Source: Corallococcus sp. bb12-1
GTDB taxonomy: Bacteria > Myxococcota > Myxococcia > Myxococcales > Myxococcaceae
Reading direction: 5' to 3'
DNA length: 64,000 nt
Assembly: GCF_026626765.1 (NCBI RefSeq)
Contig: NZ_JAPNJZ010000012.1
Location: 205,012-269,011, forward strand
Shown here in pieces: positions 12,731-60,906 of this stretch. Below the pieces are notes generated by a model that saw nothing but the letters and a program-made list of their open reading frames with translations, ran no database searches and was not told the DNA's origin. The position numbers and the translations under genes were made by a program. Positions within the stretch are counted from its first letter, which is position 1, and every line of letters starts with the position of its first letter.

Positions 12731-13328
12731 TTTTCCAGTGGAATGAAGGGCTTCAACGGTTTCATGAGCTTACCCTGAAACGACTGGCTTCGCAGGATGG
12801 GGCAGGTCGTGTGGCAACCCACCGACCCCGCGGATTGAGTCACGCCGCCGGGCGGGGCACTCCAAGGCGCGCCGGCTCCGCCCTTCGTCTCGGCTGGGAA
12901 GGTGAGGGGGCATCCCCCGGGGACGGGTGGGGGATGGGGTCACCGCCGCGGACCTTCACCCTGGCATGGACGGCGGGGGGCCTGCCTCAATCCCAGACAC
13001 GGAGCCGCGCCCATGGCGCATGAAATCACCGTGCGGATTGTCGGAGGGGTTGTCTTCATCGGCTCCTGACGGCAAGGAGCTGGAAGCCCTCCTCCTTCCG
13101 CTGCTTGACGCGCTGCCGGAGCGGGACGCCTGGGGCTTCGTCCTGGAGCTGGGGCGGGTCCGTCGCTCCCTGGAAGTGGCCTTCATGACCCTTCGGAGCT
13201 CGGCTGGCTGGTAGGCATGCCGGAAACCTGGAACGTCACCTCGATTCGAGGCAACCTCCTGCATTGTGTGGCCTTGGGGATTACTCCCAGGAGCTCACCC
13301 GGACCTCCGCAGGAAGGGAGCTGACTGC

Positions 13329-14387: not shown

Positions 14388-14425
14388 CTTGCGCGCGAGC
14401 ACGGCGCTTGCTTACGTGAAAGCCC

Positions 14426-14731
14426 ATGAAGGCGATGACCCTGGGTGTCCTGCTGATGCACATGACTTCCGCCGGAGGTGCCGGCGCGGAGGAGAAGCGG
14501 GCAGGCAAGCATGTGCAGGACGCCGGTGGCGATGAGAAGGGCGGCGTGACGAAGGAGGTCTCCTCCCTCAAGGGGGAGATCACCAGCCTGAAGGAAGAGT
14601 TCAGGGTCGCGCGCGAAAAGCAGCGTCTGGCGGCTGAAGAGAAGAAGCGCCTGGAGGAGGCCCGCTACGGTGTCCCGGCGAAGACCCCCCCTGTCACTGC
14701 CTCCGGAGGGACCGGAGCCACCGCCCGATGA
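14426..14731 (+). CDS. Small hypothetical protein with N-terminal hydrophobic segment and charged coiled-coil-like tail
   Basis: ORF only. Overlaps the following Smr ORF by about 60 nt, so the boundaries of one of the two are wrong. Confidence 0.3.
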
Positions 14732-31400: not shown

Positions 31401-32159
31401 ATGGCACAGATCAAGCTCGGAGAACTGCTGATCAAGGCGAACGTCCTGCAGGAGAGCCAGCTCAAGGCGGCGCTCGCCGAGCAGGCCAAGTGGGGCGGGA
31501 AGCTGGGCGAGATCCTCGTCCGGATGAACCTCGTCTCCGAGGACATCCTCGTGCGCGCCCTGTCGAAACAACTGGGCATGCCGGCGGTGAACCTGGACGC
31601 CGTGCAGATGGTTCCGCCGCACGTGAAGGCGAAGATTCCCTCGCAGACGGCGCGCGACTTCTCCGTCGTGCCGCTCCAACTGCGCGACGACGGCAAGACG
31701 TTGGTGGTGGCCATGTCGGACCCGCTCAACGTGCGGGTGCTCGACGAGCTCCGGGCCCTGTCCAAGTGCCGCATCGTGGCCAACGTGGCGGGCCGTACGT
31801 CGGTGGCGCGGGCGTTCGCGCGCCTCTACGAGGAGTCCGCGGAGCTGGAGGACGCGGACACGAACTTCAAGGTGGTGGACGCCCAGGGGCGTACCGTCGT
31901 GAAGAGCCTCAAGGACCTGGAGGCGGCCGGCGCCGCAGCCACCGCGCCCGCTCCGGCCCGTCCGGCGGCCCCCGCGGCCCGTCCGGCGCCCCCCGCGGAG
32001 GCGCCCCGTTCGGCGGCCTCCGGCAGTCCGGCGGAGCTGCTCAAGAGCGTGGAAGAGGTCCAGCGCAAGGAGGTCGCGGCGCTCAAGGCCATGGTGGAGC
32101 TGCTCATCGAGAAGGGCGTTTTTTCTCGCGAGGAATACCTCGCCAAGGTCAAGCGGTAG
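31401..32159 (+). CDS. Stand-alone MshEN (T2SSE_N / GspE N-terminal) domain protein; predicted c-di-GMP binding
   Basis: N-terminus KLGELLIKANVLQESQLKAALAEQ fits the MshEN motif RLGxxL(V/I)xxGx(I/V)xxxQLxxALxxQ. Second …DARDF..VPLQ…D..L.VAM.DPLN region. No ATPase domain. Confidence 0.75.
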   Translation: MAQIKLGELLIKANVLQESQLKAALAEQAKWGGKLGEILVRMNLVSEDILVRALSKQLGMPAVNLDAVQMVPPHVKAKIPSQTARDFSVVPLQLRDDGKTLVVAMSDPLNVRVLDELRALSKCRIVANVAGRTSVARAFARLYEESAELEDADTNFKVVDAQGRTVVKSLKDLEAAGAAATAPAPARPAAPAARPAPPAEAPRSAASGSPAELLKSVEEVQRKEVAALKAMVELLIEKGVFSREEYLAKVKR

Positions 32160-32168
32160 CCAGCGGCC

Positions 32169-33154
32169 ATGCGCAAGAAGATTGGTGAACTCCTCGTCCA
32201 GGCCGGAGTGGTCACGGACGAGCAGGTGAAGCAGGCCCTTGCCTCCGGGCGGCGCGGTCAGGGCCGCAAACTGGGGGAAGTGTTGGTGTCCATGGGCCTG
32301 TGCACCGGCCAGGACATCGCGCGCGCGCTGGCGGCGCAGCACGAGCTGCCCTTCGTGGAGATCCCCGAGTACATCCCCCATGGGGTGTCCTCGCTGGTGT
32401 CCATGGACTTCCAGTCCGAGCATCGCGTGCTGCTCTTCGCGCTGGAGCAGGACGGCCGCAGCGAGAAGCTCCACGTCGCGGTGGAGGACCCTGGCAACCT
32501 CATGTTGGTGGATGAACTGCGCTTCCAGTTGCGCAAGCCCCTGAAGGTGTTCGTCGCTTCCTCGGACGACATGGATCAGGCGCTGGCGCGCGGCCGGGGC
32601 GAACCGCTGGACATCGTGGAGGCTGAACCCATGGATGAGATGGACGACGCGGACGATTCGCCGGACATCCTGCCGTCCCCGCCGCCCGCGCCCGCACGGT
32701 CCTCCGCGCGTCCGCCCGCGCCGCCGCCGCTGGACTGGGACCTGCCGCCCCCACCGCCGTCCGACTCACGTCCCGACGGCGCGGACGTGCTGGAGGACCT
32801 GCTGAGCGCGAAGCCCCGCTCCGCGCCGCCCCCGCCGCCCAAGCCCGCCGCGTCGAGGCCGCCGCCTCCGCCGCCCCCGGAGGACTCCGACCCGAACAAG
32901 CCGCGCGTGCCGGTGGTCGTCTTCGGCGGCGCCGCGCAGGGCGTCCGGCCGTCGATGGCGCTCACGCCCACGCCGGACTTCTCCGAGGAGGACCTGGCGG
33001 TGCTGGACGACATCGAGCGCATCTCGCGCGGTGAAGAGGCCAGCCTGGACACGGAGAAGGTGAAGCCCGCGCGCATGGTCGCGAGCCTCATCCGCCTGCT
33101 CATCCGCAAGGGCCTCATCCAGGAGTCGGAGTTCCTGGAGGAGCTGGCCCAGAA

Positions 33155-33158
<4 letters not shown>
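32169..33158 (+). CDS. Stand-alone MshEN (GspE N-terminal) domain protein with long Pro-rich C-terminal region
   Basis: [26 protein letters not shown]…[24 protein letters not shown] (two motif copies). C-terminal helix …[23 protein letters not shown] resembles the C-terminus of the preceding protein. No ATPase domain. Confidence 0.75.
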
Positions 33159-35671: not shown

Positions 35672-36319
35672 ATGGGCACAGGGGGAGTGTTGGCACCCGA
35701 AACCTCAGACGAGCGGCTGATGCTCGCCTTCCAGGCGGGAGACGCGCGCGCGTTCGAAGCGCTGATGCGAAAGCACCGCGCGCCGGTGTTCAACTTCATC
35801 CTGCGCTTCGTCGGGCAGCGGGCGCGGGCGGAGGACGTGCTGCAGGAGACGTGGCTCAAGGTGGTTCGCAGCGCACGGGAATACACGCCGAAGGCCCGGT
35901 TCACGACCTGGCTGTACACCATCGCGAGGAACCTCTGCGTGGACAGCACGCGCAAAGAGAGCTACCGCCAGACGACATCCTTGGAGGCCCCCGTCGGTGG
36001 CACGGACGGGGACGAGGGACGTCCGCTGGGCGAGGGGCTGCCGGACTCCGGTGCCAGTCCGGAGCGCGGGGCGCACAACGCGCGCCTGCGGCCCCTGCTG
36101 GAGCGGGCCCTCGCGGGCCTGCCGGAAGAGCAGCGCGAGGTGTTCGTGTTGCGCGAGTACAGCGGCATCCCGTTCAAGGAGATCGCCGAGGTGACGGGCG
36201 TGTCCGAGAACACGGTGAAGAGTCGGATGCGCTACGCGTTGGAGGGACTGCGCCGTCGTCTGGGAGAACTGGGCGTGGATGGTGACCTGTCGGAGGATGG
36301 AAGGACGGTGGCGGGATGA
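35672..36319 (+). CDS. ECF (group IV) sigma-70 factor
   Basis: Region 2 (…FNFILRFVGQRARAEDVLQETWLKVVRS…) and region 4 HTH (…EVFVLREYSGIPFKEIAEVTGVSENTVKSRMRYALEGLRR…). Confidence 0.85.
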   Translation: MGTGGVLAPETSDERLMLAFQAGDARAFEALMRKHRAPVFNFILRFVGQRARAEDVLQETWLKVVRSAREYTPKARFTTWLYTIARNLCVDSTRKESYRQTTSLEAPVGGTDGDEGRPLGEGLPDSGASPERGAHNARLRPLLERALAGLPEEQREVFVLREYSGIPFKEIAEVTGVSENTVKSRMRYALEGLRRRLGELGVDGDLSEDGRTVAG

Positions 36320-37761
36320 GTGCCCAGAATGCCCATGCGCACGAGGACCGGCTCCTCGACTTCGCCTACGGCGAGCTGCCTGCGTCGGAGGCCCAGTCGC
36401 TGGAGCAGCACGTCCAGGGCTGCGCGCGCTGCTCCAAGGCCCTGTCGGACATCCGCGGCGTGCGCTCCACGATGGCGCACCTGTCGGTCGAACCGCCGCC
36501 GGACGCCGGCCTGGAATCGCTCCTGGCGTACGCGCAGCAGTCCGCGCGCCGCGCCGCCGCGGGGCCCGAACCAAAGCCCTCGCGCTGGCGCCGCTGGCTG
36601 TTGCCCGTGGTGGGCCTGGCCTCGGTGAGCACCTTCGGCTTGCTGACGCTGGAGGTCAGCAAGGACGTCAACCTCCAGCCGACGCTGACCCAGAAGGCCG
36701 AACCGGCGGCAGCGAAGGCGGACCGGACCCGGTCCTATGACGACGCCCCGGCCCGGCCCGCGGCGCCCGCGGCCATGCAGGCCGCGCCGCCCCCCGCGCC
36801 CATGGAGGGCGCGCTGCTGGACCGTGCGCAGCGGATGCAGGCGGAAGCCACCGTGGGCACCAAGGGTGGGGGCGAAGGTCGGCCCTCGGACTGGATGAAC
36901 GCGGGCAGTGGTGGCGCGCTGCTGGAGCGGCGTCGCGGGGCGGAGTCGAAGAAGCAGATGTCCGGCTTCAGCAAGTCGAAGTCGGAAGCGGCGAGGGACG
37001 CGCTCTCGGCCCCGTCGGCGGTGATGGACGACGAGGCGAAGGACTCCGCGCTCGCGCAGGGCTCGCTCGTTGGGAGCCGCTCGGGCCTCGGTGTCAGCAA
37101 TGGTATCGGCAATGGGGGCGGTGGCAGCGACAAGCTCCGCAAGGAAGAGGAAGGCTCGCTGCGGCTGGGCGGCGCGTCCTATGGGCGGGGCCTCGCCAAG
37201 GACGACGACGAGCTCGCGGAAGAGGCCGCGCCACCGCCGCCTGCGGATTCAGTGGTCGCCGCCGCGCCCATGGCGCCTTCCACGCCGCCGATGCCCACGG
37301 GCTCCATGCCCACGGGCTCCGTCCAGCGCAATCAGCAGGCTCCTGGCAAGGCGATGGCCGCCGCCGAGCAGATGCCCGCCACTGTTTCCAAGCCGAAGTC
37401 CGCGCCCGCGGAGAAGGCGGCCCGCGCCGATGCGATGACGACCGCGCGCGATCTGTCGCGTCAGGCGCAGGAAGCCGCGAGCCAGGGCGACCGCGCTCGG
37501 GAGTCCCAGTTGCTGCGCGCCGCGCTCGCGGCCGGGGCCACCGGAAGTGAACGCCTGTCGCTGCTCTCCCGCCTGTGCGAATCGGAGTACGCCCAGGGCC
37601 GGAGGACCGAAGGCGCGGAGGTCTGCGCGCGCATCCTCTCCGAGGCACCCGATTCCGAAGCGGCCCAGCGGGCCGGGCTGTGGCTGGGGCAGGGCGGGGC
37701 GGCGACCGTCCCCGTCAAGAAGGCCCCGGCCCAGGCCGCCCCTCTGCCGTCCAAGCAGTAG
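36316..37761 (+). CDS. Anti-sigma factor (zinc-finger HxxxCxxC N-terminal domain, one TM, large Ala/Pro-rich periplasmic region)
   Basis: ATGA overlap with the ECF gene. LEQHVQGCARCSKAL motif. TM WRRWLLPVVGLASVSTFGLLTL. Confidence 0.75.
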   Translation: MSAQNAHAHEDRLLDFAYGELPASEAQSLEQHVQGCARCSKALSDIRGVRSTMAHLSVEPPPDAGLESLLAYAQQSARRAAAGPEPKPSRWRRWLLPVVGLASVSTFGLLTLEVSKDVNLQPTLTQKAEPAAAKADRTRSYDDAPARPAAPAAMQAAPPPAPMEGALLDRAQRMQAEATVGTKGGGEGRPSDWMNAGSGGALLERRRGAESKKQMSGFSKSKSEAARDALSAPSAVMDDEAKDSALAQGSLVGSRSGLGVSNGIGNGGGGSDKLRKEEEGSLRLGGASYGRGLAKDDDELAEEAAPPPPADSVVAAAPMAPSTPPMPTGSMPTGSVQRNQQAPGKAMAAAEQMPATVSKPKSAPAEKAARADAMTTARDLSRQAQEAASQGDRARESQLLRAALAAGATGSERLSLLSRLCESEYAQGRRTEGAEVCARILSEAPDSEAAQRAGLWLGQGGAATVPVKKAPAQAAPLPSKQ

Positions 37762-37811: not shown

Positions 37812-38114
37812 ATGACCGATGCAGCGGGCCTCCGGAGCCTGGATACTGGGAGGATGACGCCGGTCGTGGATCATCCCCCCGTGAGCACCCCCCGGAAGAC
37901 AGCGTCGCGCTCCCTGCGCCGGGCCAGTCGGGGTCAGGCGATGGTCGAGTACTCGGCGCTCAACTGGGTGCTGCTCGTGGCGCTCGTCGTCGGTGCCACC
38001 GTGAAGATCCAGTGGTCCGATGACCGGCAGAGCAACGTCATCGACCTGTTCCTCGAGGCGTACGAGATCTATTACGACTCGTTCTACTTCGTGTTGAACC
38101 TGCCGTTCCCCTGA
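37812..38114 (+). CDS. Flp/Fap-family type IVb prepilin (Tad pilus subunit)
   Basis: …RRASRG/QAMVEYSALNWVLLVALVVGATV… matches the Flp processing motif G/XXXXEY followed by a hydrophobic helix. Mature length about 59 aa. Alternative start ATG 37854. Confidence 0.6.
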   Translation: MTDAAGLRSLDTGRMTPVVDHPPVSTPRKTASRSLRRASRGQAMVEYSALNWVLLVALVVGATVKIQWSDDRQSNVIDLFLEAYEIYYDSFYFVLNLPFP

Positions 38115-38341: not shown

Positions 38342-39157
38342 ATGTTGAAGGGTAAGACCCCGCTCGTCGTCGCGCTGGTGCTCGGTTTGCTCGCGGGCAT
38401 CGTGGCCTATTCGGCCATCAAGAAGAAGGAATCGGATGTGCGTCGCGGGTGGAATCTGGTGCCCGTGGTGGTCGCGGGCACGGACATGCCCGAAGGGACG
38501 GTCATCACGTACGAGATGATCTCCCAGCGCTCCGTGCCCGAGCAGTTCGTCACCTCGTCGGTGGTGAAGCCGGACTCGGCCAACTACATCGTGAACCAGA
38601 AGGTGTTGGTGGCGCTGCAGGCCGGCGACCCCATCCTCTGGAGCCAGTTCGAGACGACGAAGGCCGCCGAGCGCCTGTCGACGAAGGTGCAGAAGAAGGC
38701 GCGCGCCATCACCATCGAGGCGAAGCACACGACGTCGGTGGGCGGCTGGATCCGTCCCAACGACCACGTGGACATCATCGGCACGTTCCGCGATCCGCAG
38801 ACGGACGAGAGCGTCGCCGTGACGCTGCTGCAGAACATCATCGTGGTCGCCACGGGCAAGATCACCGGCACCACGAACATCAACCTCATCCCGGAGAGCC
38901 AGCGCGAGTACTCCAACGTGTCGCTGATGGTGCTGCCGGAAGAGGCGGAGATCCTGGTGCTGGCAGCGGAGCTGGGCAACCTGACCCTGTCCTTGCGCAA
39001 CGAGGACGACGTGGACCTCATCGAGGAGCGCGGTCGCGCCACCATCAGCACGCTGCTGTCCGGCGAGCGCACCCGGGTGCTGGAGCAGAAGCGCCGGGAG
39101 ATCATCCAGATCATCAAGGGCGGCACCGGCGAGAAGGCCTCGGCCGGCTCTCCGTAG
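38342..39157 (+). CDS. cpaB: Flp pilus assembly protein CpaB/RcpC (SAF-domain)
   Basis: N-terminal TM (LVVALVLGLLAGIVAY). SAF-like region. Characteristic …ITIEAKHTTSVGGWIRPNDHVDII… CpaB core. Confidence 0.85.
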   Translation: MLKGKTPLVVALVLGLLAGIVAYSAIKKKESDVRRGWNLVPVVVAGTDMPEGTVITYEMISQRSVPEQFVTSSVVKPDSANYIVNQKVLVALQAGDPILWSQFETTKAAERLSTKVQKKARAITIEAKHTTSVGGWIRPNDHVDIIGTFRDPQTDESVAVTLLQNIIVVATGKITGTTNINLIPESQREYSNVSLMVLPEEAEILVLAAELGNLTLSLRNEDDVDLIEERGRATISTLLSGERTRVLEQKRREIIQIIKGGTGEKASAGSP

Positions 39158-39229: not shown

Positions 39230-40075
39230 ATGCTCGCAGGTATCGTCCTCCTTCTCGTCACCGGCTCGGTGTTCTTCTTCAGCCTGGTGATCTTCAGCGT
39301 CCTGTCGAAGGCGTATGAGCAGTACCAGGAGCGCTACGTCGCCAAGTCGATGAACGACTTGAGCGACATGTTCCTCTTCATCGACGCGCGGCAGATGTTG
39401 ATCCTCAACATCGCCATGATGTGCCTCCTGGGCATCCTCAGCTACATCATCTTCAACCCCATCCTGGCGTTGATCGCGACCATCTTCGGCTTCTTCCTGC
39501 CGATGCTGATGGTGAAGCACTACCGCAAGCGCCGGATCAAGAAGTTCAACGTGCAGCTCGTGGACGCGCTGCAGGCCATGGCCAACGCGTTCAAGGCGGG
39601 CCTCACGTTCCCCCAGGCCATCGAGCACGTGGCGCGCGAAGCAATGCCGCCGCTGTCCCAGGAGTTCGGCCTGTTCGTGAAGGAAGTGAAGCTGGGCGTC
39701 CCCCTGGAAGAGGCCCTGGTGAACATGGGCCGCCGCGTGGGCAGTGACGACCTGGAGCTGGTGGTGGTGTCCACCAACATCGCGCGCCAACTGGGCGGCA
39801 ACATGGCGGAGATGTTCGAGACCATCTCCACGGTGATCCGCGAGCGCTTCCGCCTGGAGGGCAAGATCGACGCCCTCACGTCCCAGGGCAAGCTGCAGGG
39901 GTGGATCGTCGCGGCCATGCCGGCTGTCCTCGGCATGGTGCTCAACTACATGCGCCCGGACCTGATGGAGCCGATGTTGGATCACCTCTTCGGCTACATC
40001 CTGGTGACCATCATCGCCATCATGGAGATCATGGGCATCCTCATCATCCGGAAAATCGTCAACATCGACATTTGA
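39230..40075 (+). CDS. tadB: Tad pilus inner-membrane platform protein TadB (T2SS-F domain)
   Basis: N-terminal TM. T2SSF domain pattern (…LVDALQAMANAFKAGLTFPQAIEHVA…). C-terminal TMs. 281 aa. Confidence 0.85.
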   Translation: MLAGIVLLLVTGSVFFFSLVIFSVLSKAYEQYQERYVAKSMNDLSDMFLFIDARQMLILNIAMMCLLGILSYIIFNPILALIATIFGFFLPMLMVKHYRKRRIKKFNVQLVDALQAMANAFKAGLTFPQAIEHVAREAMPPLSQEFGLFVKEVKLGVPLEEALVNMGRRVGSDDLELVVVSTNIARQLGGNMAEMFETISTVIRERFRLEGKIDALTSQGKLQGWIVAAMPAVLGMVLNYMRPDLMEPMLDHLFGYILVTIIAIMEIMGILIIRKIVNIDI

Positions 40076-40088
40076 AACGAGGCGCACC

Positions 40089-40979
40089 GTGCAGGAGATT
40101 CTGACAGCCTTGTTGATCGGTGGCTCGACGCTGCTGACCGTGGGGGCCTTTACGTTCCTGGGCGTGGGCCTCTACACCAACGTCCTGGAGCACTTCCTCA
40201 CGGAGGTCCGCGACGAGTCCGCGGGCGGCATGAAGGGCGTGGGCTCCGTCGCCATCCGCAAGTTGGGGGCGATGAACCGGCGCTTCATGTGGCCGGGCTA
40301 CGAGTCCAAGACGCGCCGCAAGCTCATCAAGGCGGGCGAACCGTCGCAGTACAAGCCCGAGGACATCATGGCGCTGCAGGAAGTCAGCGCCTTCCTGGCC
40401 CTGCTGGCCGGCCTCTTCGTCATCAACGGCATCGGGATGAACCTGGCCTGGTCGCTGCTGGTGATGCTGTTGGGCCTGTTCTATCCGCTCATCTGGTTGA
40501 ACGATCAGGTGAAGCGCCGTCACCTGGCCATCAGCCGCGCGCTTCCGTACAACATCGACCTGCTGACGCTGTCGGTGGAAGCGGGCATGGACTTCACGGG
40601 CGCGCTGGCGAAGGTGGTGGAGAAGGGTCGCCAGGGGCCGCTGCGCGAGGAGCTGCAGCTGGTGCTCAAGCAGCTCAAGATGGGCAAGACGCGTGAAGAG
40701 GGCTTGAAGGGCATGATCGCGCGCGTGGACCTGCCGCCCCTGACGACGTTCGTCACGGCGCTGATCCAGGCGGACAAGATGGGCACCAGCCTGGGCAAGG
40801 TGCTGCGCATCCAGTCCACGCAGATGCGCATCGACCGGACGCAGCGCGCGGAGAAGCTGGCGGGTGAAGCGCCGGTGAAGATGCTCTTCCCGCTCATCGC
40901 CTGCATCTTCCCGACGGTGTTCATGGTGCTCTTCGGGCCCATCGTGTTCCAGTTCATGTACGGCAACGTCGGGGGCTAG
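40089..40979 (+). CDS. tadC: Tad pilus inner-membrane platform protein TadC (T2SS-F domain)
   Basis: T2SSF domain (…LPYNIDLLTLSVEAGMDFTGALAKVVE…). GTG start. 296 aa. Confidence 0.85.
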   Translation: MQEILTALLIGGSTLLTVGAFTFLGVGLYTNVLEHFLTEVRDESAGGMKGVGSVAIRKLGAMNRRFMWPGYESKTRRKLIKAGEPSQYKPEDIMALQEVSAFLALLAGLFVINGIGMNLAWSLLVMLLGLFYPLIWLNDQVKRRHLAISRALPYNIDLLTLSVEAGMDFTGALAKVVEKGRQGPLREELQLVLKQLKMGKTREEGLKGMIARVDLPPLTTFVTALIQADKMGTSLGKVLRIQSTQMRIDRTQRAEKLAGEAPVKMLFPLIACIFPTVFMVLFGPIVFQFMYGNVGG

Positions 40980-41052
40980 TCCTCTGCCGATCCTGCTCAC
41001 CATCACCCAGGGGCTCCAGGTTGGTAGGGAGCTCGCCTTCGAGCAGGCCGAG

Positions 41053-44000
41053 GTGAAGATCGGCCGGACCTCGGAGAACGACCTGGTGCTGCATGACCAC
41101 GGGGTCTCCCGGCGTCATGCCCGCATCACGGCGAGGGACGGGCAGTACTTCGCCGAGGACGTGGGCAGCGCCAACGGCACGCAGCTCAACGGCCAGCCGC
41201 TCGGCGGGCAGAAGCAGCTGCGCGACGGGGATCGCATCACCGTCGGGCCGGTGGAGTTCACCTTCGTCTGGATGCCGCAGGACGACGAGGCGGACGTCAC
41301 CCGGCCCATCCGCAGGGTGCTCGCGCCGGCGCATGCGCAGGTGTCGCCGCCGCAGGGCCTGGAGCAGGCCTCGCTCGCGGAGATCGAAGCCGCGCCCACG
41401 AGCTACCAGCAGTCGCTGCCGGTGATGGCGAGGCCGTCCTTCCTGCCGACCCCGCAGCGTTCCGGGGCCGCGGTGAAGAGCCTGGCGACGCCCGCGGCGC
41501 CGCTGGCGCCCCCTCCCACGAAGAAGCCGGAGGCCGTGGTGCCTCCGCCGAAACGGCCCTCCGCTCCCGACCTTCCGGCGGTGGGCGCGCCCGCGCAGGG
41601 CCGCGCTTCGGGGCCGCGCCTTCCCGCGCTGGGAGCGCCCACGTTGAACAGGGCCGCCCGTCCGGCAGGGGACGCCTCCTCGCAGGGCCGTGCATCCGGT
41701 CCGGGCCTCCCTGCTGGCGGAGCATCCACGTCAAACCGGGTCGCGCCTCCCCTAGAGGGAACTCCCGCGCAGGGCCGTGCATCCGGTCCGGGCCTCGCCG
41801 CTGTCGGAGCGTCCACGCCGAACCGGGCCGCGCCTGACGTGCAGGGGGCGCCCGCGCAGGGCCGCGCTTCGGGGCCGGGTCTCCCCGTCGCGGGTGGTTC
41901 CGCGAAGGGCGGACCTTCTGCCCCAGGCCAGTCCGCCGCTTCAGGCAAATTCTCGGCACCGGGCCCAGCCTCGCCTGACGCCTCCTCCGCACCGAAGCGG
42001 GTCGCCCCTCCGGGCCCGCCCGTGCTCGATGCCGCCGCGCCGAAGAAAGCCCCGCCGGGCCTGCCCTCGGTCGGCGCTCCCGCGCTGAACCGTCCCTCCC
42101 TGGGGCGCGGTGCCGCGCGAGGGGCCGAGGCGGCGAAACCTCCGTCGCTCCAAGCGGACGCCGCCGCCGCGCCGCCTCCGCCGGGCCCGCCCGCTCCGCA
42201 CAGGGATGCGCCGTCTGTCTCTCCCCCCGCGAGTGGAAGGCCGCCCGCGTCGCCTCCGGTGAACAGGGGCGCGGTGGCTTCGGTACCCTTGCTGCCCTCT
42301 GTTCCGGCGCTGACGCCTCCCGTGGCGCCCACGCCCGTGCGGGGTCCGTCAGCTCCAGCTCCCGGCCTTCCCGTACTGTCTCCTTCCGGGTTCGTGCCGC
42401 CTCCGGTGACCGCTCCTGTCGCTTCATGGGACGCGCCTCCGGCGGGCCTGTCCCCGGTGGATCCGGACGAGCCCGAGGAGCGCACGCTGATGGCGATTCC
42501 CGTGGTGCAGTCGCCTGGGCCTGTCCTGGCTGCTCCTCCGGTGGCGCCCCCCGCGTTGTCCTTCGTGGATCCGGACGAGCCCGAAGAGCACACGCTGATG
42601 GCGATCTCCACGGTGGACTCGCCGGAGCCCCTGCTTCCTGCGCCCCCGGTGGCGTTCCCCGCGCTCGCCTTCGTGGATCTGGAGGAGCCCGAGGAGCGCA
42701 CGTTGATGGCGATCTCCGCGGTGGACTCGCCTGAGCCCCGGACCCAAGCCGCACCGTCATTCGGCCCTCCGGAGGCAGCGGCCCTTCCGTCGGTGGCGGA
42801 GGAGGAGCCCGAGGAGCACACCGTCCTCGACCTGCGGCCCATCGTCCCCGTCAGTCCGCTGGTGCCGCGCCCGGTGTTGCATGGGGCGCCTCCACCGAAG
42901 GCGGCTGCCCCTGCCTTCTCCGCGGAACCGCCGACGTACGTGGGGCAGGACCAGGACATCCCTTCCGCCCCGCCGGACGACGCCTTGTCCGACGTGCAGA
43001 CCTTCATCGGCAAGGACGGACCTGGCGCGCCCCCTGTTCTGGCGCCTTCCCCGGCGCGAAGCGCTCCGGTCGCTCCGCCTCCGCCTTTTGATCCGGCCTT
43101 TGATCCGGTGACGTTCGTGGGCAAGGACCGGCCGGACGCGGCGGCGCCCCCCGCATCGCTGGCCGCTTCACCGCCGGCCGCGGAGGCCGGCCTGCTGGCC
43201 CTCCTCTCTTCGGACGAAGGCGACGCCACCCAGCCCCTCCCGCCGTCCGACCCGGACGCCTCCTCCTCCCAGCCGGCGCGCTCCGTGACGGTCGTCGCCA
43301 AGGTCGAACCCTCGACCGCCGCCGACAAGGCCCGGAAGCGGCGCCAGCTCGCCCGCACGCTGGGCGGCCAGTTCGTCCTCTTCTGGAATCGCCAGTCCCT
43401 GCTCCGCCGCGTCGGCTACGCGTCCCTCGCGGGTGTCGTCGTGCTGGCGGCGCTGTTCGGCGTGGTGACCGCCGTGACGTCCCAGTCGCTCCGGCTGCCG
43501 GGCCGGGAGCCCTTCAAGCTGGGCCTGGAGCCGGTGCCGGACTCGTTCGGCTTCGGCCAGGGCGTGCGCTGGTCCCACGTAGACGACAAGGTCTTCGACT
43601 TCCGCTTCGTCTCGCCCACGCGCGCGGTGGCGGTGCTGCACTACCAGGCCAGCAACATCTCCAAGGATGAGGTCAACCTGTCGCTCAACGGCGTGTCCCT
43701 GGGCTGGGTCCCGCCGGACACGGCCCAGACGCAGGAGCGCGAGCTGGAGCAGGTGATGCCCCCGGGCCTGCTGCGCCGCAACGAGAACAACCAGCTGCTC
43801 TTCGACAACGCCCTCAACCCGCCCGGTCAGGAGAGCTGGCGCATCTGGAACCTCCGGCTGGAGATCATCCCGGTGCCGGAGCTGCCGCCGGCTCAGCTGT
43901 TGGCGTCCGCTCGGGAAGCCGCGATGGCGGGTGCCCGGTTCTACGAACTCAAGGACGTGGGCGGGGAGAACCTCTTCAGGGCCTGGCAGCAGTACCGCGC

Positions 44001-44253
44001 CGCGTGGATCACCCTGGAAGCGCTGGATGAGAAGCCGGAGCTCTACGAGGACGTCCGGGAGCGGATCGCCCGGATTTCAACGGAGCTGGACCACCGGTGC
44101 GGTCAGCTGATGCTGGAATTCCAGCAGGCCGTCCAGTACCGGAGTCGGCGTCAGGCGGTCGCGGCCCTGGCGGAAGTGCGGAGACGCTTCCCTAGCACCG
44201 AGCATCGCTGCCACAATCTCGCGCTGGAAAAAGCCTATGAGCATGAACTCTAG
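41053..44253 (+). CDS. FHA-domain protein with long Pro/Ala-rich repetitive linker, one TM, and about 270 aa C-terminal (periplasmic) domain
   Basis: FHA core …IGRTSENDLVLHDHGVSRRHARI…GSANGTQLNGQPL…RDGDRITVGPVEF. TM LAGVVVLAALFGVVTAV near residue 800. FHA similarity continues in-frame upstream to about 40981 with no canonical start codon. Confidence 0.8.
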   Translation: MKIGRTSENDLVLHDHGVSRRHARITARDGQYFAEDVGSANGTQLNGQPLGGQKQLRDGDRITVGPVEFTFVWMPQDDEADVTRPIRRVLAPAHAQVSPPQGLEQASLAEIEAAPTSYQQSLPVMARPSFLPTPQRSGAAVKSLATPAAPLAPPPTKKPEAVVPPPKRPSAPDLPAVGAPAQGRASGPRLPALGAPTLNRAARPAGDASSQGRASGPGLPAGGASTSNRVAPPLEGTPAQGRASGPGLAAVGASTPNRAAPDVQGAPAQGRASGPGLPVAGGSAKGGPSAPGQSAASGKFSAPGPASPDASSAPKRVAPPGPPVLDAAAPKKAPPGLPSVGAPALNRPSLGRGAARGAEAAKPPSLQADAAAAPPPPGPPAPHRDAPSVSPPASGRPPASPPVNRGAVASVPLLPSVPALTPPVAPTPVRGPSAPAPGLPVLSPSGFVPPPVTAPVASWDAPPAGLSPVDPDEPEERTLMAIPVVQSPGPVLAAPPVAPPALSFVDPDEPEEHTLMAISTVDSPEPLLPAPPVAFPALAFVDLEEPEERTLMAISAVDSPEPRTQAAPSFGPPEAAALPSVAEEEPEEHTVLDLRPIVPVSPLVPRPVLHGAPPPKAAAPAFSAEPPTYVGQDQDIPSAPPDDALSDVQTFIGKDGPGAPPVLAPSPARSAPVAPPPPFDPAFDPVTFVGKDRPDAAAPPASLAASPPAAEAGLLALLSSDEGDATQPLPPSDPDASSSQPARSVTVVAKVEPSTAADKARKRRQLARTLGGQFVLFWNRQSLLRRVGYASLAGVVVLAALFGVVTAVTSQSLRLPGREPFKLGLEPVPDSFGFGQGVRWSHVDDKVFDFRFVSPTRAVAVLHYQASNISKDEVNLSLNGVSLGWVPPDTAQTQERELEQVMPPGLLRRNENNQLLFDNALNPPGQESWRIWNLRLEIIPVPELPPAQLLASAREAAMAGARFYELKDVGGENLFRAWQQYRAAWITLEALDEKPELYEDVRERIARISTELDHRCGQLMLEFQQAVQYRSRRQAVAALAEVRRRFPSTEHRCHNLALEKAYEHEL
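41575..41900. repeat. About 3.6 tandem copies of an 87-90 bp in-frame repeat (AQGRASGPGLPA…NRAA) in the FHA gene
   Basis: cagggccg(c/t)gc(t/a)tc(g/c)gg(g/t)ccg recurs at about 41593, 41683, 41770 and 41857. Confidence 0.7.
42445..42790. repeat. Three tandem copies (plus a partial fourth) of a roughly 108-111 bp in-frame repeat (DPDEPEERTLMAI.VVDSPEP…PPVA.PAL.FV)
   Basis: gatccggacgagcccga(g/a)gagc(g/a)cacgctgatggcgat recurs at about 42457, 42568 and 42676. Confidence 0.7.
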
Positions 44254-44280
44254 GGTTCGTGCCCCCCTCAGCAGGACGCG

Positions 44281-46029
44281 GTGAACACCATGTCGAACGG
44301 TCCTCCCCCAGCCCGCCGAAGGCCCACTTCGGGTACGCCCTCTTCCGGGACCGGACAACGCGCGCCGGTCCGTCGGTCGACCGCCGGTGTCTCCGCGGCG
44401 AAGCCCGCGAAGCTCGTGGTCATCGCGGGCCCCAGCGAGGGCGCGGAGTTCCCGCTCTCCGAGCTGGAGTACACGGTCGGCCGCGCCTCCGACAATCCCA
44501 TCTGCCTTCAGGACACGTCCGTCTCCCGCAAGCACATCACGCTGCGCAAGGAGTCCGCAGGCTGGTACGTCAGCGACATGAAGTCGGGCAACGGCACGCT
44601 CGTCAACGACGAGCCCGTCACCGACGAGACGCTGCTGGCCAACGGCGACGTCATCACGCTGGGCGACTCGGAGATGCGCTACGAGGACGTGGCCAACAGC
44701 ACCGCCAAGGTGCAGGCGCCGCCGTCGGGCCCCAGGCCCCGTCCGTCCACGGGCGGGAGCCGTTCCTCCCCGGCGGTGCCCGTGCGTCCCGGCCCCGGTC
44801 GCGCGCGCCCGCAGACGTCGCGCGCCTCCGCCGCCGCGGAGCAGACGCCGGAGATGCAGCGCAAGAAGCTGCGGATGAAGCTCGCGGGCGTGGGCGTGGT
44901 GGTGGTGCTCCTCGCCGGCCTGGGCGTCGCGCGCACCCGCATGCAGAAGCAGCAGGAGGAGCAGGTCCGCATCGAGCAGGAGCAGCTCGACTACCGCGCG
45001 CAACTGGGCGCCCTCTTCCAGGAGGCCAAGAACCTGGTGCGCGAGGGCCAGTGGCAGCAGGCCAAGGTGAAGTTGATGGAGCTCCAGGAGCAGGCGCCCG
45101 AGTACCCCGGCGTGGCCGACTACCTGAAGGCCGCGGAGAAGGAGATCCCCAACCAGGGACACCTGACGGCGGCCCAGTCGGCGATGACCAAGGGGGAGCT
45201 TGCCTCCGCGCAGGCGTCGCTCGCCAAGGTGGGCAGCGACACGCAGTTGTACGAGCAGCTGAAGACGGCCCGCAGGGCGCTGACCAACGCGGCCGACGCA
45301 CGCACGAAGGAGGCCAACACGCTGATGGCCACCCGTCAGCTGGAGTCGGTGCAGAAGGCCAAGGCCATCACCGACGACGTGCTGGTGACCTTCCCGGAGC
45401 ACCGCGACGGCAAGCTCATCAACGAGGAGGCCGCGCGCATCATCGCGGATCTGACGCGTCCGGAGCCCGTGCGGGTGGCGGCGGCGCCCAAGCCCTGGGA
45501 GCCCGCGGTGGACCGGTTCCGCGACGGTGACATGACCGGCGCGGTGGCCATCCTCAACACGTGCCTGGGCAAGACGCCCCAGTGCAAGCAGTACATGACG
45601 CAGATGACGGAGTTCGGGAACCTCTACAAGAAGCTGGAGGACCTGGACGCCAAGGGCCTGACGCGGCTGCTGGCGCTCGACAAGGACATCACCGACGGCC
45701 GGGGCAGCAAGATGGCGCGCAACGCGGGCACCCGCGCGGCGACGACCTTCTACAAGAGCGCCGCCGCCGCGAAGGCCTCCGCGCAGTACACGCGCGCGAT
45801 GGAGCTCGCCCGCCGCGCGCTCCAGGCGGACCCCAACCACACGGGCGCCGCCAACATCGTCAGCGACCTGCGGGCCAAGGCCAAGGACCTGTACATGCAG
45901 GCCTACTCCATCAAGGACTCCAGCCCGGACGAAGCGCTGCCCCAGTTCAAGGACGTCGTCTCCATGACGCCGCCGGACGACGAGCTGCACGGCAAGGCCC
46001 AGGGCTGGGTCGAGAAGCTGTCGCGATGA
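44281..46029 (+). CDS. FHA-domain membrane protein with C-terminal TPR-like/helical domain
   Basis: FHA (KLVVIAGPSEGAEFPLSELEYTVGRASDNPICLQDTSVSRKHITL…SGNGTLVNDEPV…). TM GVGVVVVLLAGLGVA. Stop overlaps the xseA start (ATGA). Confidence 0.8.
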   Translation: MNTMSNGPPPARRRPTSGTPSSGTGQRAPVRRSTAGVSAAKPAKLVVIAGPSEGAEFPLSELEYTVGRASDNPICLQDTSVSRKHITLRKESAGWYVSDMKSGNGTLVNDEPVTDETLLANGDVITLGDSEMRYEDVANSTAKVQAPPSGPRPRPSTGGSRSSPAVPVRPGPGRARPQTSRASAAAEQTPEMQRKKLRMKLAGVGVVVVLLAGLGVARTRMQKQQEEQVRIEQEQLDYRAQLGALFQEAKNLVREGQWQQAKVKLMELQEQAPEYPGVADYLKAAEKEIPNQGHLTAAQSAMTKGELASAQASLAKVGSDTQLYEQLKTARRALTNAADARTKEANTLMATRQLESVQKAKAITDDVLVTFPEHRDGKLINEEAARIIADLTRPEPVRVAAAPKPWEPAVDRFRDGDMTGAVAILNTCLGKTPQCKQYMTQMTEFGNLYKKLEDLDAKGLTRLLALDKDITDGRGSKMARNAGTRAATTFYKSAAAAKASAQYTRAMELARRALQADPNHTGAANIVSDLRAKAKDLYMQAYSIKDSSPDEALPQFKDVVSMTPPDDELHGKAQGWVEKLSR

Positions 46030-47738
46030 AGAAGCGCAAGGGCGCGGAGCCGCCGCCTCCCGAAGAGGGACAGGGCGACCTCTTCGGCACGTCGCTCTTG
46101 CCACCCCTGCGTCCGGCCTCCCCGGTGGCGAAGGCCGCTGGGAGCAAGCCTCCGCCGCCCGCGTCCCAGCCCCGGGCGGAAGCCGTCCTGCCGCCACCGG
46201 CCCCGGCGCCCATCCCGGTGCCGCGCGCGGAGCGAACGGTGTTGTCGGTGGGCGAACTCACGCGTCAGTTGAAGCAGACGGTGGAGTCGCGCTTCCCGCG
46301 CGTGCTGGTGCGCGGCGAGGTGTCCAGCTTCCGGGGCGCCAACGCGCGCGGCCACTGGTACTTCACGCTCAAGGACGCGGACGCCTCCATCGACGCCAAG
46401 GTGTGGGCCTCGATGGCGTCGCGGATCCGCTTCGCGCTGCGCGACGGCATGGAGGTCCTGGCCGAGGGCAGCGTGGACCTGTACGAGCCGCAGGGCCGCT
46501 ACAGCCTCATCGTCAGTCGGCTGGAGCCTGTCGGCGAGGGCGCGATGGCGCTCGCGTTCGAACAGCTCAAGCAGCGCCTGGCGGCCGAGGGGCTCATCGG
46601 CGACCGGCGCGTGCGCCCGCCCCGTCCCGTGCCCTTCCTGCCCCGGCGCATTGGCGTCGTCACCAGCCGCACGGGCGCGGCGCTCCAGGACTTCCTGCGC
46701 GTGCTGCACTCGCGCAACCCCCGGCTGGGCGTGCTGCTGGCGGACGCGCGGGTGCAGGGCGAGGGCGCTGAAGAGGACGTCGCGCGGGCCATCGAACGGC
46801 TGGGCCGCACCGACGTGGACGTCATCGTCGTGACGCGCGGCGGAGGCTCCGTGGAGGACCTCTGGACCTTCAACGAGGAGCGGGTGGCGCGTGCCATCTT
46901 CGCCTCGCCGGTGCCGGTGGTGTCCGCCATCGGCCACGAAATCGACTTCACCATCGCGGACTTCGTCGCGGACCTGCGCTCGCCCACGCCCAGCGCGGCG
47001 GCGGAGCGGCTGTCTCCGGTGCTGGCGGACCTGGAGCTGACGCTGGCCACGCAGTCCGGACGGCTGCGCCGCGCCTTCGAGCGCCGCGTGCTGGAGCTGC
47101 GCGAGCGTCAGGGCCAACTCGCGGCCCGGCTCACCGACCCGCGCCGCGCGGTGAACCAGCAGCGCCTGCACCTGTCCGAACAGGTGGAGGCGATGATGCG
47201 CGTGCTGCGTCCCCAGGCGCGCGAACACCGCGAGCGGCTGCGGGCCCTGCAGGAGCGGTTGCAGCGGGCCCGGCCCCAGACGCGGCTGGGAGAGCAGCGC
47301 TCGCACCTGCTCAAGCTCGCCGGGCGCCTGTCGGAAGCGGCGCGCGCGGGCGTGTCCCGGCGGCGGGGCGGACTGGCGGACGCGCGGCTGGGGCTGGAGC
47401 GTCTGACGCCCACGGCCCTGGTGGCGGCGGAGCGCGCGCGGGTGGCGAAGGCGCGCTCGCGGCTTTTGGAGCTCCAGCGGGGGACGCTGTCCTCCGCGCA
47501 GACGCATTTCGGACGCCTGGGGGGACGGCTGGACGCCCTGAGCCCGCTGAAGGTGATGTCGCGCGGCTACGCGGTGACGTTCCGCCAGCGGGACGGCGTG
47601 GTGGTGCGCTCCACCGGGGACGTGGTGGTGGGGGACGTGCTGGGCATCAAGCTGGCCGCCCATGGCGCCCAGACGCTGGGCGGGTGTGAAGAAATCGAAG
47701 CCACCGTCACGGGCCTGAAAGGGCCGGTGGACTGCTAG
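46026..47738 (+). CDS. xseA: Exodeoxyribonuclease VII large subunit
   Basis: OB-fold N-terminus (…VRGEVSSFRGANARGHWYFTLKD…). Catalytic region (…IGVVTSRTGAALQDFLRVLHSR…VIVVTRGGGSVEDLW…). Start is ATG 46026 within track ORF 45561..47738. Confidence 0.9.
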   Translation: MKKRKGAEPPPPEEGQGDLFGTSLLPPLRPASPVAKAAGSKPPPPASQPRAEAVLPPPAPAPIPVPRAERTVLSVGELTRQLKQTVESRFPRVLVRGEVSSFRGANARGHWYFTLKDADASIDAKVWASMASRIRFALRDGMEVLAEGSVDLYEPQGRYSLIVSRLEPVGEGAMALAFEQLKQRLAAEGLIGDRRVRPPRPVPFLPRRIGVVTSRTGAALQDFLRVLHSRNPRLGVLLADARVQGEGAEEDVARAIERLGRTDVDVIVVTRGGGSVEDLWTFNEERVARAIFASPVPVVSAIGHEIDFTIADFVADLRSPTPSAAAERLSPVLADLELTLATQSGRLRRAFERRVLELRERQGQLAARLTDPRRAVNQQRLHLSEQVEAMMRVLRPQAREHRERLRALQERLQRARPQTRLGEQRSHLLKLAGRLSEAARAGVSRRRGGLADARLGLERLTPTALVAAERARVAKARSRLLELQRGTLSSAQTHFGRLGGRLDALSPLKVMSRGYAVTFRQRDGVVVRSTGDVVVGDVLGIKLAAHGAQTLGGCEEIEATVTGLKGPVDC

Positions 47739-59387: not shown

Positions 59388-59729
59388 ATGGCACAGGGTG
59401 AAACGGGCATCATTGGCAAGGGCATCGTCATCAGGGGCAACCTCACGGGCGGAGGAGACCTGGTCATCGAAGGACGCGTGGAGGGGCAGATCGCCCTGAA
59501 GAACCACCTGACCATCGAGGGCACCGGCAAGGTGCAGGCGGACATCCGCGCCGAGGAACTGACCATCAACGGAGAGGCGAGCGGCAACATCGACGCGTCG
59601 ACCCGTGTGGCCATCAATGCCTCGGCGAAGGTTGCGGGCGACATCAAGGCCCCGCGCGTCGTCATCGAGGATGGGGCCGTGTTCAACGGCTCCATCGAGA
59701 TGGACGTGAAGTTGCCGGACGACATCTAG
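59388..59729 (+). CDS. bacN: Bactofilin (DUF583 β-helical cytoskeletal protein)
   Basis: Repetitive …I.G.V.G.I… β-helix pattern. First of three tandem bactofilins, as in the M. xanthus bacNOP-padC locus. Confidence 0.8.
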   Translation: MAQGETGIIGKGIVIRGNLTGGGDLVIEGRVEGQIALKNHLTIEGTGKVQADIRAEELTINGEASGNIDASTRVAINASAKVAGDIKAPRVVIEDGAVFNGSIEMDVKLPDDI

Positions 59730-59792
59730 CATCCACCGGGGTTCGTCCCACGGACCCCCCAGGCGCAAGCTTCGAGAAGGCGGACAACACTC

Positions 59793-60116
59793 ATGGCGAA
59801 TACGGTCATTGGTTCGAGCATCGTCATCGACGGGGAGATTTCCGGTGACGAGGTCCTGGTCATCCAGGGCACCGTGAAGGGGAAGATCTCCCTCAAGGAG
59901 AGCCTCTACGTGGAGGGCTCCGGCGTCGTCGAGGCGGACATCGACACGCAGAACGTGGAGATCGCCGGCCGGGTGACGGGCAACATCGTCGCCAGCGACA
60001 AGGTGGAGCTCAAGACGGACTGCCGCGTGGTGGGCGACATCAAGGCCCCGCGAATCCTCATCGCCGACGGTGCCTCCTTCAAGGGCAACGTCGACATGGA
60101 CATGAAGGAGCGCTGA
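59793..60116 (+). CDS. bacO: Bactofilin
   Basis: Same DUF583 repeat pattern. 107 aa. Confidence 0.8.
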   Translation: MANTVIGSSIVIDGEISGDEVLVIQGTVKGKISLKESLYVEGSGVVEADIDTQNVEIAGRVTGNIVASDKVELKTDCRVVGDIKAPRILIADGASFKGNVDMDMKER

Positions 60117-60119
60117 TCC

Positions 60120-60845
60120 GTGGCCACCGCCAAGGAGCTCGCAGACAATGCCGTGGACAACACCGTGGTGGGGCCTTCCATCCTCATCAGCGGTCGTCTC
60201 ACGGGTGACGAGGACCTCACGGTCCGCGGGCGCGTCGAGGGTGAACTGACCCTCAGCCGCACCCTCATCGTGGAGCCCTCGGGCGTGGTGAAGGCCAACG
60301 TGGCGGTGAAGAACGCCATCGTCAGCGGCGTGGTGGTGGGCAACATCAACGCCACCGAAAGCGTGGAGCTGACCCGCGAAGGCCGCATGGTGGGCGACAT
60401 CCGCGCCCCCCGCGTCATCATCGTGGACGGCGCCAGCTTCCGCGGCCGCGTGGACATGGGCGACGTGGAGCCGGGCCGTCTGCCGGCCGAGCGCCCCACC
60501 GTCGCGCGCCCCCAGGCCGTCACGCGTCCCACGGTGCGGCCCGGCGCCACGCCGCCGCGCCCCCCGACGCCTCCGGCGGCGCCCCCGCGCGCCCCGACCC
60601 CGCCGCCGCCCCCAGCGCGTCCCGCGCCCACGAGCACGGCGCCGGCCACGGTGGTGTCCCGGCCGTTGGCTCCGGCCAGCAAGCCGCTGCCTCCGCCGCC
60701 GCCCGCGACGCCCACGTTCACCCCGCGCGCATCCGAGCCGCCGCGCCCGCCTCCCACTGAGCAGGCGAGCAGTGCTTCGAGACCCATGTCTCCCGTGGTG
60801 GCGGCTGGCGCGAAGAAGAAGGTCGTGGTGAAGAAGTCCCGTTAG
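60120..60845 (+). CDS. bacP: Bactofilin with about 125 aa Pro-rich, Lys-terminated C-terminal tail
   Basis: DUF583 core followed by …[24 protein letters not shown]…[10 protein letters not shown]. The architecture matches BacP. Confidence 0.8.
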
Positions 60846-60906
60846 AGCCCGCCCACCGCGCCGTCATTTCCGGCGGCGCGGGGGTGGAACAACCGGGGGT
60901 GCCACC

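Follow-up and report, generated by a model that had tools for sequence, protein, structure and literature searches.

Two tandem FHA-domain proteins at the Kil (Tad-like) locus of Corallococcus are orthologues of the uncharacterised MXAN_4649 and MXAN_4648 of Myxococcus xanthus

Identification of FHA1 and FHA2 and correction of the FHA1 start codon

A 64-kb stretch of DNA from Corallococcus sp. bb12-1 (contig NZ_JAPNJZ010000012.1, positions 205,012 to 269,011; 70% GC), hereafter called the window, was analysed, and coding frames in it were judged by the GC content of the third codon position. Its forward strand carries two tandem genes, named here FHA1 and FHA2, that code for FHA-domain proteins with one predicted transmembrane (TM) helix each. 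Sequence comparison identified them as the Corallococcus orthologues of MXAN_4649 and MXAN_4648, which belong to cluster II of the Kil (Tad-like) prey-killing system of M. xanthus. The two genes are real and largely known, being catalogued in the model species, yet they are uncharacterised.

40984..44253, forward strand: FHA1, orthologue of MXAN_4649; 1089 aa from a CTG start codon, GTG 41053 being internal
44281..46029, forward strand: FHA2, orthologue of MXAN_4648; 582 aa from a GTG codon, with ATG 44290 as the likely start

The third-codon-position GC content was 0.85 in the FHA1 open reading frame (ORF) and 0.95 in that of FHA2, and therefore these two forward-strand ORFs were considered real coding frames. 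Two long ORFs on the opposite strand (41403..43358 and 44077..46197) failed this filter and were treated as high-GC artefacts.

The first protein had originally been described as having 1066 aa, as read from GTG 41053 (41053..44253, forward strand). The frame is open 5' of this GTG, where it encodes LPILLTITQGLQVGRELAFEQAE, the first two strands of the FHA domain; CTG 40984 lies 23 codons upstream, and no ATG, GTG or TTG codon occurs in the FHA1 frame between the two. In a public gene call of Corallococcus sp. BB11-1 the gene starts at the CTG equivalent to window position 40984. At this codon M. xanthus, whose protein begins MPILLTITQG, has GTG, and Corallococcus, Pyxidicoccus, Citreicoccus and Archangium have CTG. 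Based on the open upstream frame, the homologous start codons and the BB11-1 gene call, the length was corrected to 1089 aa (40984..44253), with the start codon 4 nt after the tadC stop. Because of this conserved CTG start, ORF calls made mechanically lose the beginning of the FHA domain. An alignment of 61 homologues has a consensus that begins at the 'IGR' of this domain, so that numerous database entries are probably also shortened at the N-terminus owing to the CTG start. Translation of FHA2 probably starts at ATG 44290, since M4 is nearly invariant among its orthologues.

Orthology, gene order and range of the family

BLASTP matched FHA1 to M. xanthus DK1622 ABF92065.1 (484 aa; 74% identity in the FHA domain and 63% in the periplasmic domain; E 2e-116) and FHA2 to ABF93059.1 (581 aa; 62% identity over the full length; E 0.0), the DK1622 proteins falling in the same 90% clusters as the BLASTP matches. 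Kil cluster II of M. xanthus comprises MXAN_4648-4661, in which MXAN_4652 is KilB, MXAN_4651 is KilG, MXAN_4650 is KilH, MXAN_4649 is an FHA protein recognised by HHpred as 'PrgH', and MXAN_4648 is a protein with FHA and TPR domains (Seef et al., 2021; PMC8460266). In the window, the genes located 3' of FHA2 match the M. xanthus numbering, counting down to the TPR protein MXAN_4639 of the table in that study, beyond which come three bactofilin genes and a ParB-like gene. From the gene order and this downstream numbering, ABF92065.1 and FHA1 were assigned to MXAN_4649, and ABF93059.1 and FHA2 to MXAN_4648.

The gene order cpaB-tadB-tadC-FHA1-FHA2-xseA was found in approximately 50 loci from Corallococcus, Myxococcus (including M. 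xanthus AM003), Pyxidicoccus, Citreicoccus, Archangium, Hyalangium and Vitiosangium, and the same order surrounded a metagenomic relative only 35% identical. The closest loci were those of Corallococcus terminator CA054A (98% identity in the FHA1 C-terminal domain and 97% in FHA2) and of other Corallococcus species. In about 30 loci in which the junction was read, FHA1 always lay 3' of tadC at a distance of 4-19 nt. The ORFs, their Pfam FHA matches (see below) and this tight linkage to tadB and tadC bear out the original prediction of two tandem FHA genes directly after tadC.

Word-indexed protein searches, in which the long FHA1 proteins of Corallococcus were overlooked, put the family at about 120 members; when the FHA1 periplasmic domain was used as query in an exhaustive phmmer search, 386 cluster representatives were obtained at E <= 1e-3, 125 of them at E <= 1e-30. 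This type of domain is mostly C-terminal in proteins of 300-700 aa. The distant members are mostly metagenome proteins, and their organism belongs to Myxococcota wherever it is named.

FHA1 paralogues (38-44% identical; loci L059, L061, L064, L066, L080 and others, at about 9200-14600) that are not located beside tadBC were found in Archangiaceae and Myxococcaceae metagenome-assembled genomes. They are encoded directly upstream of three genes for proteins with pilin-type N-termini, one of them a Pfam TadE match, with two T2SSE ATPases nearby. The neighbourhood, conserved across these genomes, also includes a glutathione peroxidase, an acyltransferase and an esterase. The minor-pilin triads resemble the KilL/M/N 'Tip' sets of Herrou et al. 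(2025). Another paralogue, from Pyxidicoccus (P0254), lies at a contig edge, where its context is uninformative.

Domain architecture of FHA1 and FHA2

The domains of both proteins were delimited using Pfam, hydropathy and AlphaFold2 (AF2) models, that of FHA1 covering its C-terminal 307 aa (TM helix, β-sandwich and five-helix bundle) with a mean predicted local distance difference test (pLDDT) score of 88.8. They are as follows:

40984..41265, forward strand: FHA1 FHA domain (aa 1-94), predicted cytoplasmic, with G27-R28, S42-R-R-H45 and N64-G-T66; Pfam FHA, E 1.8e-19
43411..43479, forward strand: predicted FHA1 TM helix, hydropathy 2.43, helical in AF2, with the basic cluster KARKRRQLAR N-terminal to it
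43534..43872, forward strand: FHA1 8-stranded jelly-roll β-sandwich, predicted periplasmic; AF2 mean pLDDT 88.8
43888..44241, forward strand: FHA1 five-helix TPR-like bundle with two invariant Cys, predicted periplasmic
44410..44685, forward strand: FHA2 FHA domain, predicted cytoplasmic, with G67, R68, S82, R83, H85, N104, G105 and T106 invariant in 66 sequences
44881..44931, forward strand: predicted FHA2 TM helix, hydropathy 2.22; in AF2 the TM part extends into a long helix (aa 193-254)
45052..46023, forward strand: FHA2 all-helical TPR-like solenoid (aa 258-581), predicted periplasmic; AF2 pLDDT >90, invariant C428-x6-C435, weak Pfam TPR matches

Both FHA domains scored above the Pfam FHA cut-off (PF00498; 70.4 bits for FHA1 and 68.5 bits for FHA2 against 20.7; E 1.8e-19 and 7e-19), so that the FHA motifs noted originally held in profile searches. 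Pfam Yop-YscD_cpl (PF16697) matched them as well (E 2.2e-14 and 2.9e-21, respectively). The Gly-Arg, Ser-x-x-His and Asn-Gly-Thr residues of FHA domains bind phosphothreonine, and all are kept in both FHA1 and FHA2. A profile search of PDB sequences gave as nearest solved relatives EmbR, GarA/OdhI, FhaA and Rv1747, which are phosphothreonine-binding. By sequence, both FHA domains resemble GarA/FhaA more than YscD of type III secretion systems (T3SS), and both are predicted to be competent for phosphothreonine binding. Since these residues are kept, the control or scaffolding by Ser/Thr kinases that the original prediction proposed would be a reasonable reading.

A single strongly hydrophobic segment is present in each protein, with a K/R cluster N-terminal to it, and AF2 modelled both segments as TM helices. 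The K/R cluster preceding the hydrophobic segment places the N-terminus of both proteins inside. In addition, the invariant Cys pairs ('HRC...HRCH' in FHA1 and C-x6-C in FHA2) are confined to the C-terminal domains, which fits an oxidising periplasm. From these hydropathy, charge and Cys patterns we infer a bitopic topology with periplasmic C-terminal domains, in agreement with the single TM helix and extracytoplasmic C-terminal domain originally predicted for each protein.

No Pfam model covers the FHA1 periplasmic domain. Foldseek matched its β-sandwich to carbohydrate-binding modules (CBM) 6/35/36, domain III of Cry toxins and BcsB, with E-values of 1e-4 to 1e-2 and low TM-scores. AF2 models and fold comparison revealed in neither protein the ring-building α/β domains of PrgH/YscD. 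The β-sandwich was also observed in 3-5 tandem copies in large proteins (P0411, P0425 and P0429; 803-1763 aa), and therefore it is an independent mobile domain lacking a Pfam model.

The FHA1 linker and candidate phospho-acceptor threonines

Between its FHA domain and its TM helix FHA1 has a long linker, and threonine motifs were found in it and in the shorter disordered segment of FHA2 (aa 141-197 by AF2):

41266..43400, forward strand: FHA1 disordered Pro/Ala-rich linker of ~700 aa (aa ~95-800), predicted cytoplasmic, delimited by composition, TOP-IDP score and orthologue lengths
41281..41316, forward strand: conserved DDEADVTRPIRR motif with Thr106 and Ile at +3, candidate phospho-acceptor and FHA ligand
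41590-41887, forward strand: tandem repeat, 87 bp x3.4, 'AQGRASGPGLP..' unit, found by Tandem Repeats Finder (TRF)
42457-42739, forward strand: tandem repeat, 108 bp x2.6, with 'DEPEE(R/H)TLMAI' acidic-Thr motifs (TRF), and a degenerate fourth motif copy 3' of the array
44701..44703, forward strand: invariant FHA2 Thr141 in 'NST(M/A)xV', with Val/Ile at +3, candidate phospho-acceptor

The linker had been described as about 750 aa of Pro/Ala/Gly-rich tandem repeats. A Pro/Ala-rich linker (P 21%, A 18%) of ~700 aa was indeed present, but true tandem repeats account for only ~190 aa of it in total (TRF); outside them the sequence is non-repetitive, of low complexity and scored as disordered by TOP-IDP. 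FHA1 measures 483-494 aa in most Myxococcus, Pyxidicoccus and Citreicoccus, 527-609 aa in Archangium, Hyalangium and Vitiosangium, about 650-680 aa in some Myxococcus, 940-1124 aa in Corallococcus and 1380 aa in M. dinghuensis (L019, 6782-10921), where the linker was expanded independently with different repeat units. As a result, the tether ranges from ~90 to ~1000 aa between genera. The folded domains of FHA1 in the window and in Corallococcus BB11-1 share more than 90% identity, and the linkers of the two differ by many insertions and deletions.

Two kinds of threonine motif were recognised. The first, 'D(A/V)TRP(I/F)RR', lies 3' of the FHA1 FHA domain: the pattern TR[PLIVA][IVLFM] occurs, in 1-3 copies, at <=40 aa from the domain end in 26 of the 35 testable orthologues, 22 of which have TRP[IF]. 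The residue at +3 is aliphatic both here and at FHA2 Thr141, a type of residue that many bacterial FHA domains prefer at this position. The second kind is a signature common to the different tandem units of expanded linkers, acidic-acidic-x-Thr-hydrophobic: the unit is 'EPEE(R/H)TLMAI' in Corallococcus (3-5 copies in most species), 'EERTE(V/L)AL' in M. qinghaiensis (3 copies), and 'EESTAML' (x3) and 'EDDQTLPPM' (x4) in M. dinghuensis. As judged from these units, the acidic-Thr motifs were amplified independently in three lineages.

Neighbouring genes and other features of the window

FHA1 and FHA2 are preceded by cpaB, tadB and tadC and followed by xseA, which indicates a Tad-like locus and not a T3SS cluster. 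The following neighbours were annotated:

37854..38114, forward strand: small pilin-like ORF of 86 aa, counterpart of KilK (MXAN_4655) by position; a class-III-signal-like 'RG/QAMVEYS' followed by a hydrophobic helix; C-terminus YYDSFYFVLNLPFP
38342..39157, forward strand: KilB, CpaB/RcpC homologue; Pfam RcpC (1e-22) and SAF; NCBIfam pilus_cpaB 189.9 bits against a cut-off of 71
39230..40075, forward strand: KilG, TadB-like platform protein; Pfam T2SSF 4.3e-17; 93-96% identity in Myxococcus loci
40089..40979, forward strand: KilH, TadC-like platform protein; Pfam T2SSF 1.7e-18
46026..47738, forward strand: xseA, whose ATG overlaps the FHA2 stop codon (ATGA, 46026-46029)

The small pilin-like ORF is kept in all genera, is located 1.8 kb upstream of kilB in M. 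xanthus (L044), and matched no Pfam or NCBIfam model. Owing to the overlap between the end of FHA2 and the start of xseA, both genes belong to one operon, in which the kil genes continue unbroken into housekeeping genes (xseA, xseB, a response regulator, ispA, dxs and tlyA, in this order). No terminator-like site was found in the interval from cpaB to xseB, and this unbroken run fits the 20-gene operon predicted for M. xanthus (bioRxiv 10.64898/2026.08.20.745974).

Upstream, an ECF (extracytoplasmic function) sigma factor gene (35672-36319) and a zf-HC2 anti-sigma factor gene (36316-37761), the latter being the counterpart of the 'zinc-finger' gene MXAN_4661, are located only ~580 bp from kilB in Corallococcus. 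This short distance implies that the minor-pilin 'Tip 4' block (MXAN_4656-4660) and MXAN_4653/4654 are missing at this locus.

Three further groups of genes were observed elsewhere in the window. Two adjacent proteins (31401-33158, forward strand; 252 and 329 aa) each have an MshEN domain, which in type II/IV secretion ATPases is N-terminal, and no ATPase domain; they are encoded upstream of an oligopeptide-type ABC ATPase pair. Three consecutive bactofilin genes followed by a gene with a ParB-like N-terminal domain (59388-62340, forward strand) form an arrangement that we take to resemble the bacNOP-padC chromosome-segregation module of M. xanthus. Finally, a globin-coupled methyl-accepting chemotaxis protein (Bac_globin, PAS and MCPsignal) adjoins a CheA-type kinase with a CheW domain (6890-11603, reverse strand).

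Proposed role in the Kil machine and alternative explanations

The two proteins bear on how Myxococcus-type predators sense contact with prey and assemble Kil at that spot. The Kil papers and two reviews have already remarked on an excess of FHA proteins in kil clusters and proposed a phosphorylation cascade by analogy with type VI secretion systems (T6SS) (PMC8460266, PMC10433427, PMC12428579), and therefore the interpretation offered by the original prediction corresponds to a published hypothesis. That work makes the FHA proteins of kil clusters a likely signalling link. What is added here are the kept phosphothreonine-binding residues, the non-SctD periplasmic folds, the acidic-Thr motifs 3' of each FHA domain and the paralogues linked to minor pilins, to which the Corallococcus versions add a striking expansion of the linker.

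We regard it as somewhat probable that FHA1 and FHA2 are accessory inner-membrane components of the Kil contact-dependent prey-killing machine, coupling its periplasmic parts to phosphothreonine-dependent recruitment. According to this proposal, each protein would cross the membrane once, with a cytoplasmic FHA domain, a disordered tether, the TM helix and a folded periplasmic module in this order. The periplasmic modules may dock on Kil parts such as KilB/CpaB, the secretin or minor-pilin tip complexes, and the FHA domains would bind threonines phosphorylated by Ser/Thr kinases, on partner proteins or in the acidic-Thr motifs of FHA1 and FHA2 themselves. Such binding could recruit or cluster cytoplasmic Kil proteins at the KilG/KilH platform, including the KilF ATPase, which has an FHA domain of its own, and the FHA-TPR protein KilD, and the long, fast-evolving FHA1 linker might act as a flexible multivalent tether.

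Several points weigh against this role. No Ser/Thr kinase domain or PP2C phosphatase was found among the ~46 ORFs of the window that were scanned (~10 smaller ORFs lay outside the scan), which tempers the proposal of kinase control. The threonines are candidate phospho-acceptors whose phosphorylation we infer from sequence; acidic-Thr sites exceeded those of composition shuffles (6 versus 1.0 in the window, 17 versus 4.1 in M. dinghuensis), a significance that is overstated because repeat copies are not independent. The periplasmic folds matched generic TPR structures or, weakly, CBM-like ones (E 1e-4 to 1e-2), and these matches name no partner. Moreover, FHA1 and FHA2 are co-operonic with xseAB, ispA and dxs, and therefore linkage alone does not prove a Kil-specific role. 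Finally, our literature search found no paper or mutant treating MXAN_4648 or MXAN_4649 individually, and neither is among the kil genes deleted by Seef et al.

An alternative that we judge improbable, although worth keeping in mind, is that both proteins are outside-in sensors: receptors, not passive adaptors, whose periplasmic modules would detect contact with prey or perturbation of the envelope (e.g., peptidoglycan or glycan fragments), their FHA domains then starting the cascade that assembles Kil. The FHA1 β-sandwich would be the main sensory element: its jelly-roll is similar in fold to CBM6/35/36, BcsB and Cry toxin domain III, and it is a mobile module, repeated in tandem in other proteins; furthermore, from the formation of KilD foci when the Tad machine is not functional, Seef et al. 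inferred a sensory system encoded in the kil clusters and acting upstream (PMC8460266). However, the fold similarity is weak, no ligand-binding residues were identified in the module, and the window ORFs that were scanned include no linked kinase. With a disordered tether of ~700 aa, a single-pass protein would also transduce conformational changes poorly, although clustering could substitute for such transduction.

We think it rather unlikely that FHA1 and FHA2 are phosphorylation-independent, SctD-like ring subunits, oligomerising around the KilG/KilH platform or bridging to the needle-less T3SS*, with the FHA fold acting as a protein-protein module only. The Yop-YscD_cpl matches, the FHA-TM-periplasmic topology common to SctD, the PrgH assignment of MXAN_4649 by HHpred (PMC8460266) and the co-localisation of Kil and T3SS* at prey contacts described in the literature are all consistent with it. 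Nevertheless, with 19 and 34.5 bits both proteins fall well short of the 86-bit cut-off of the NCBIfam SctD model (TIGR02500), the periplasmic folds differ from those of SctD, and the canonical phosphothreonine-binding residues are invariant.

The least credible explanation, that both are general envelope or cell-cycle FHA proteins merely sharing the operon, as analogues of mycobacterial FhaA/FhaB in cell-wall synthesis that serve the downstream housekeeping genes, is suggested by their best NCBIfam match, FhaB/FipA (72.7 and 75.5 bits), and by the co-operonic xseA, xseB, ispA and dxs, but these scores fall under the cut-off of 125 and cover only the FHA domain, the family is confined to Myxococcota wherever the source names the organism, FHA1 keeps its place after tadC with deep synteny, and the paralogues lie beside minor-pilin triads and not cell-wall genes.

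Returning to FHA1 and FHA2 as accessory components of Kil, a bolder form of this proposal can be put forward, which we consider speculative and doubtful: the FHA1 linker would be a multivalent phosphothreonine scaffold. The 'DxTRPI' motif and the acidic-Thr repeats would be phosphorylated on contact with prey and bound by the FHA domains of KilF, KilD, MXAN_3104, FHA2 and FHA1 itself, nucleating a membrane-anchored, condensate-like cluster that positions and starts Kil. Clustering of this sort is reported for Rv1747 and for T6SS Fha condensates (PMC8339232; 10.1101/2023.12.21.572528). The jelly-roll/TPR module of FHA1 would in turn dock minor-pilin 'Tip' complexes, as suggested by the paralogues encoded directly upstream of minor-pilin triads; if so, kinase signalling would be coupled to which tip is loaded.

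Comparison with known systems

The closest counterparts are MXAN_4649 and MXAN_4648 as catalogued by Seef et al., which are orthologues with 62-74% identity in the folded domains, the same domains, and the same slot after KilB-KilG-KilH and before xseA. The FHA1 linker has ~700 aa in Corallococcus and ~90 aa in M. xanthus (1089 versus 484 aa in total), and Corallococcus FHA1 has lineage-specific tandem repeats and a CTG start, in contrast to the GTG of M. xanthus. In M. xanthus the interval from the anti-sigma gene to kilB contains the minor-pilin block MXAN_4656-4660 as well as MXAN_4653/4654, which are absent from the Corallococcus locus.

The same layout is found in GltG, of the Agl-Glt gliding machine of M. 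xanthus: a cytoplasmic FHA domain at the N-terminus is followed by long disordered segments, a single TM helix and a C-terminal domain folded in the periplasm. GltG acts as a connector across the membrane in a machine that spans the envelope, and the TPR scaffold GltI is the predicted docking site of its FHA domain (PMC11761067). GltG differs from FHA1 and FHA2 by an additional FHA domain and a TonB-C-like domain, and its spacer is a long periplasmic extension, whereas here it would be a long cytoplasmic disordered segment. The NCBIfam GltG model (NF033760) matched only the FHA region, with 54.1 bits against a cut-off of 650. SctD (YscD/PrgH) shares with both proteins a cytoplasmic FHA-fold domain, a single TM helix, a periplasmic domain and the PF16697 match, but differs in its periplasmic fold; the FHA domains of FHA1 and FHA2 are nearer to phosphothreonine-binding FHAs, and their locus is Tad-like.

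The original prediction had compared both proteins to T6SS Fha and to the FHA protein of type IVa pilus systems. For the latter, our search found no such FHA protein with which to compare. T6SS Fha/TagH also combines an FHA domain with an intrinsically disordered region, and Fha, through the PpkA-PppA threonine phosphorylation pathway, controls contact-triggered assembly of a weapon, its clustering recruiting components (10.1101/2023.12.21.572528). The comparison does not stand as it was made, since T6SS Fha is cytoplasmic and soluble (10.1101/2023.12.21.572528), whereas FHA1 and FHA2 are predicted to be membrane-anchored with periplasmic domains. NCBIfam TagH (TIGR03354) matched FHA1 only, with 62.7 bits against a cut-off of 120.25, and no T6SS genes were found among the window ORFs scanned. 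NCBIfam OdhI scored far below its cut-off.

In the M. tuberculosis ABC transporter Rv1747, which has FHA domain(s) and a disordered linker with Thr phospho-acceptors, multivalent contacts between FHA domains and phosphothreonines drive clustering (PMC8339232). FHA1 and FHA2 may form a comparable module: an FHA domain, a disordered linker and conserved acidic-Thr motifs are present on a predicted membrane protein, and the Rv1747 FHA domains were among the sequence and structure matches. In contrast to Rv1747, here there is one FHA domain per protein on two separate proteins, there is no transporter domain, and the linker motifs are candidate acceptors.

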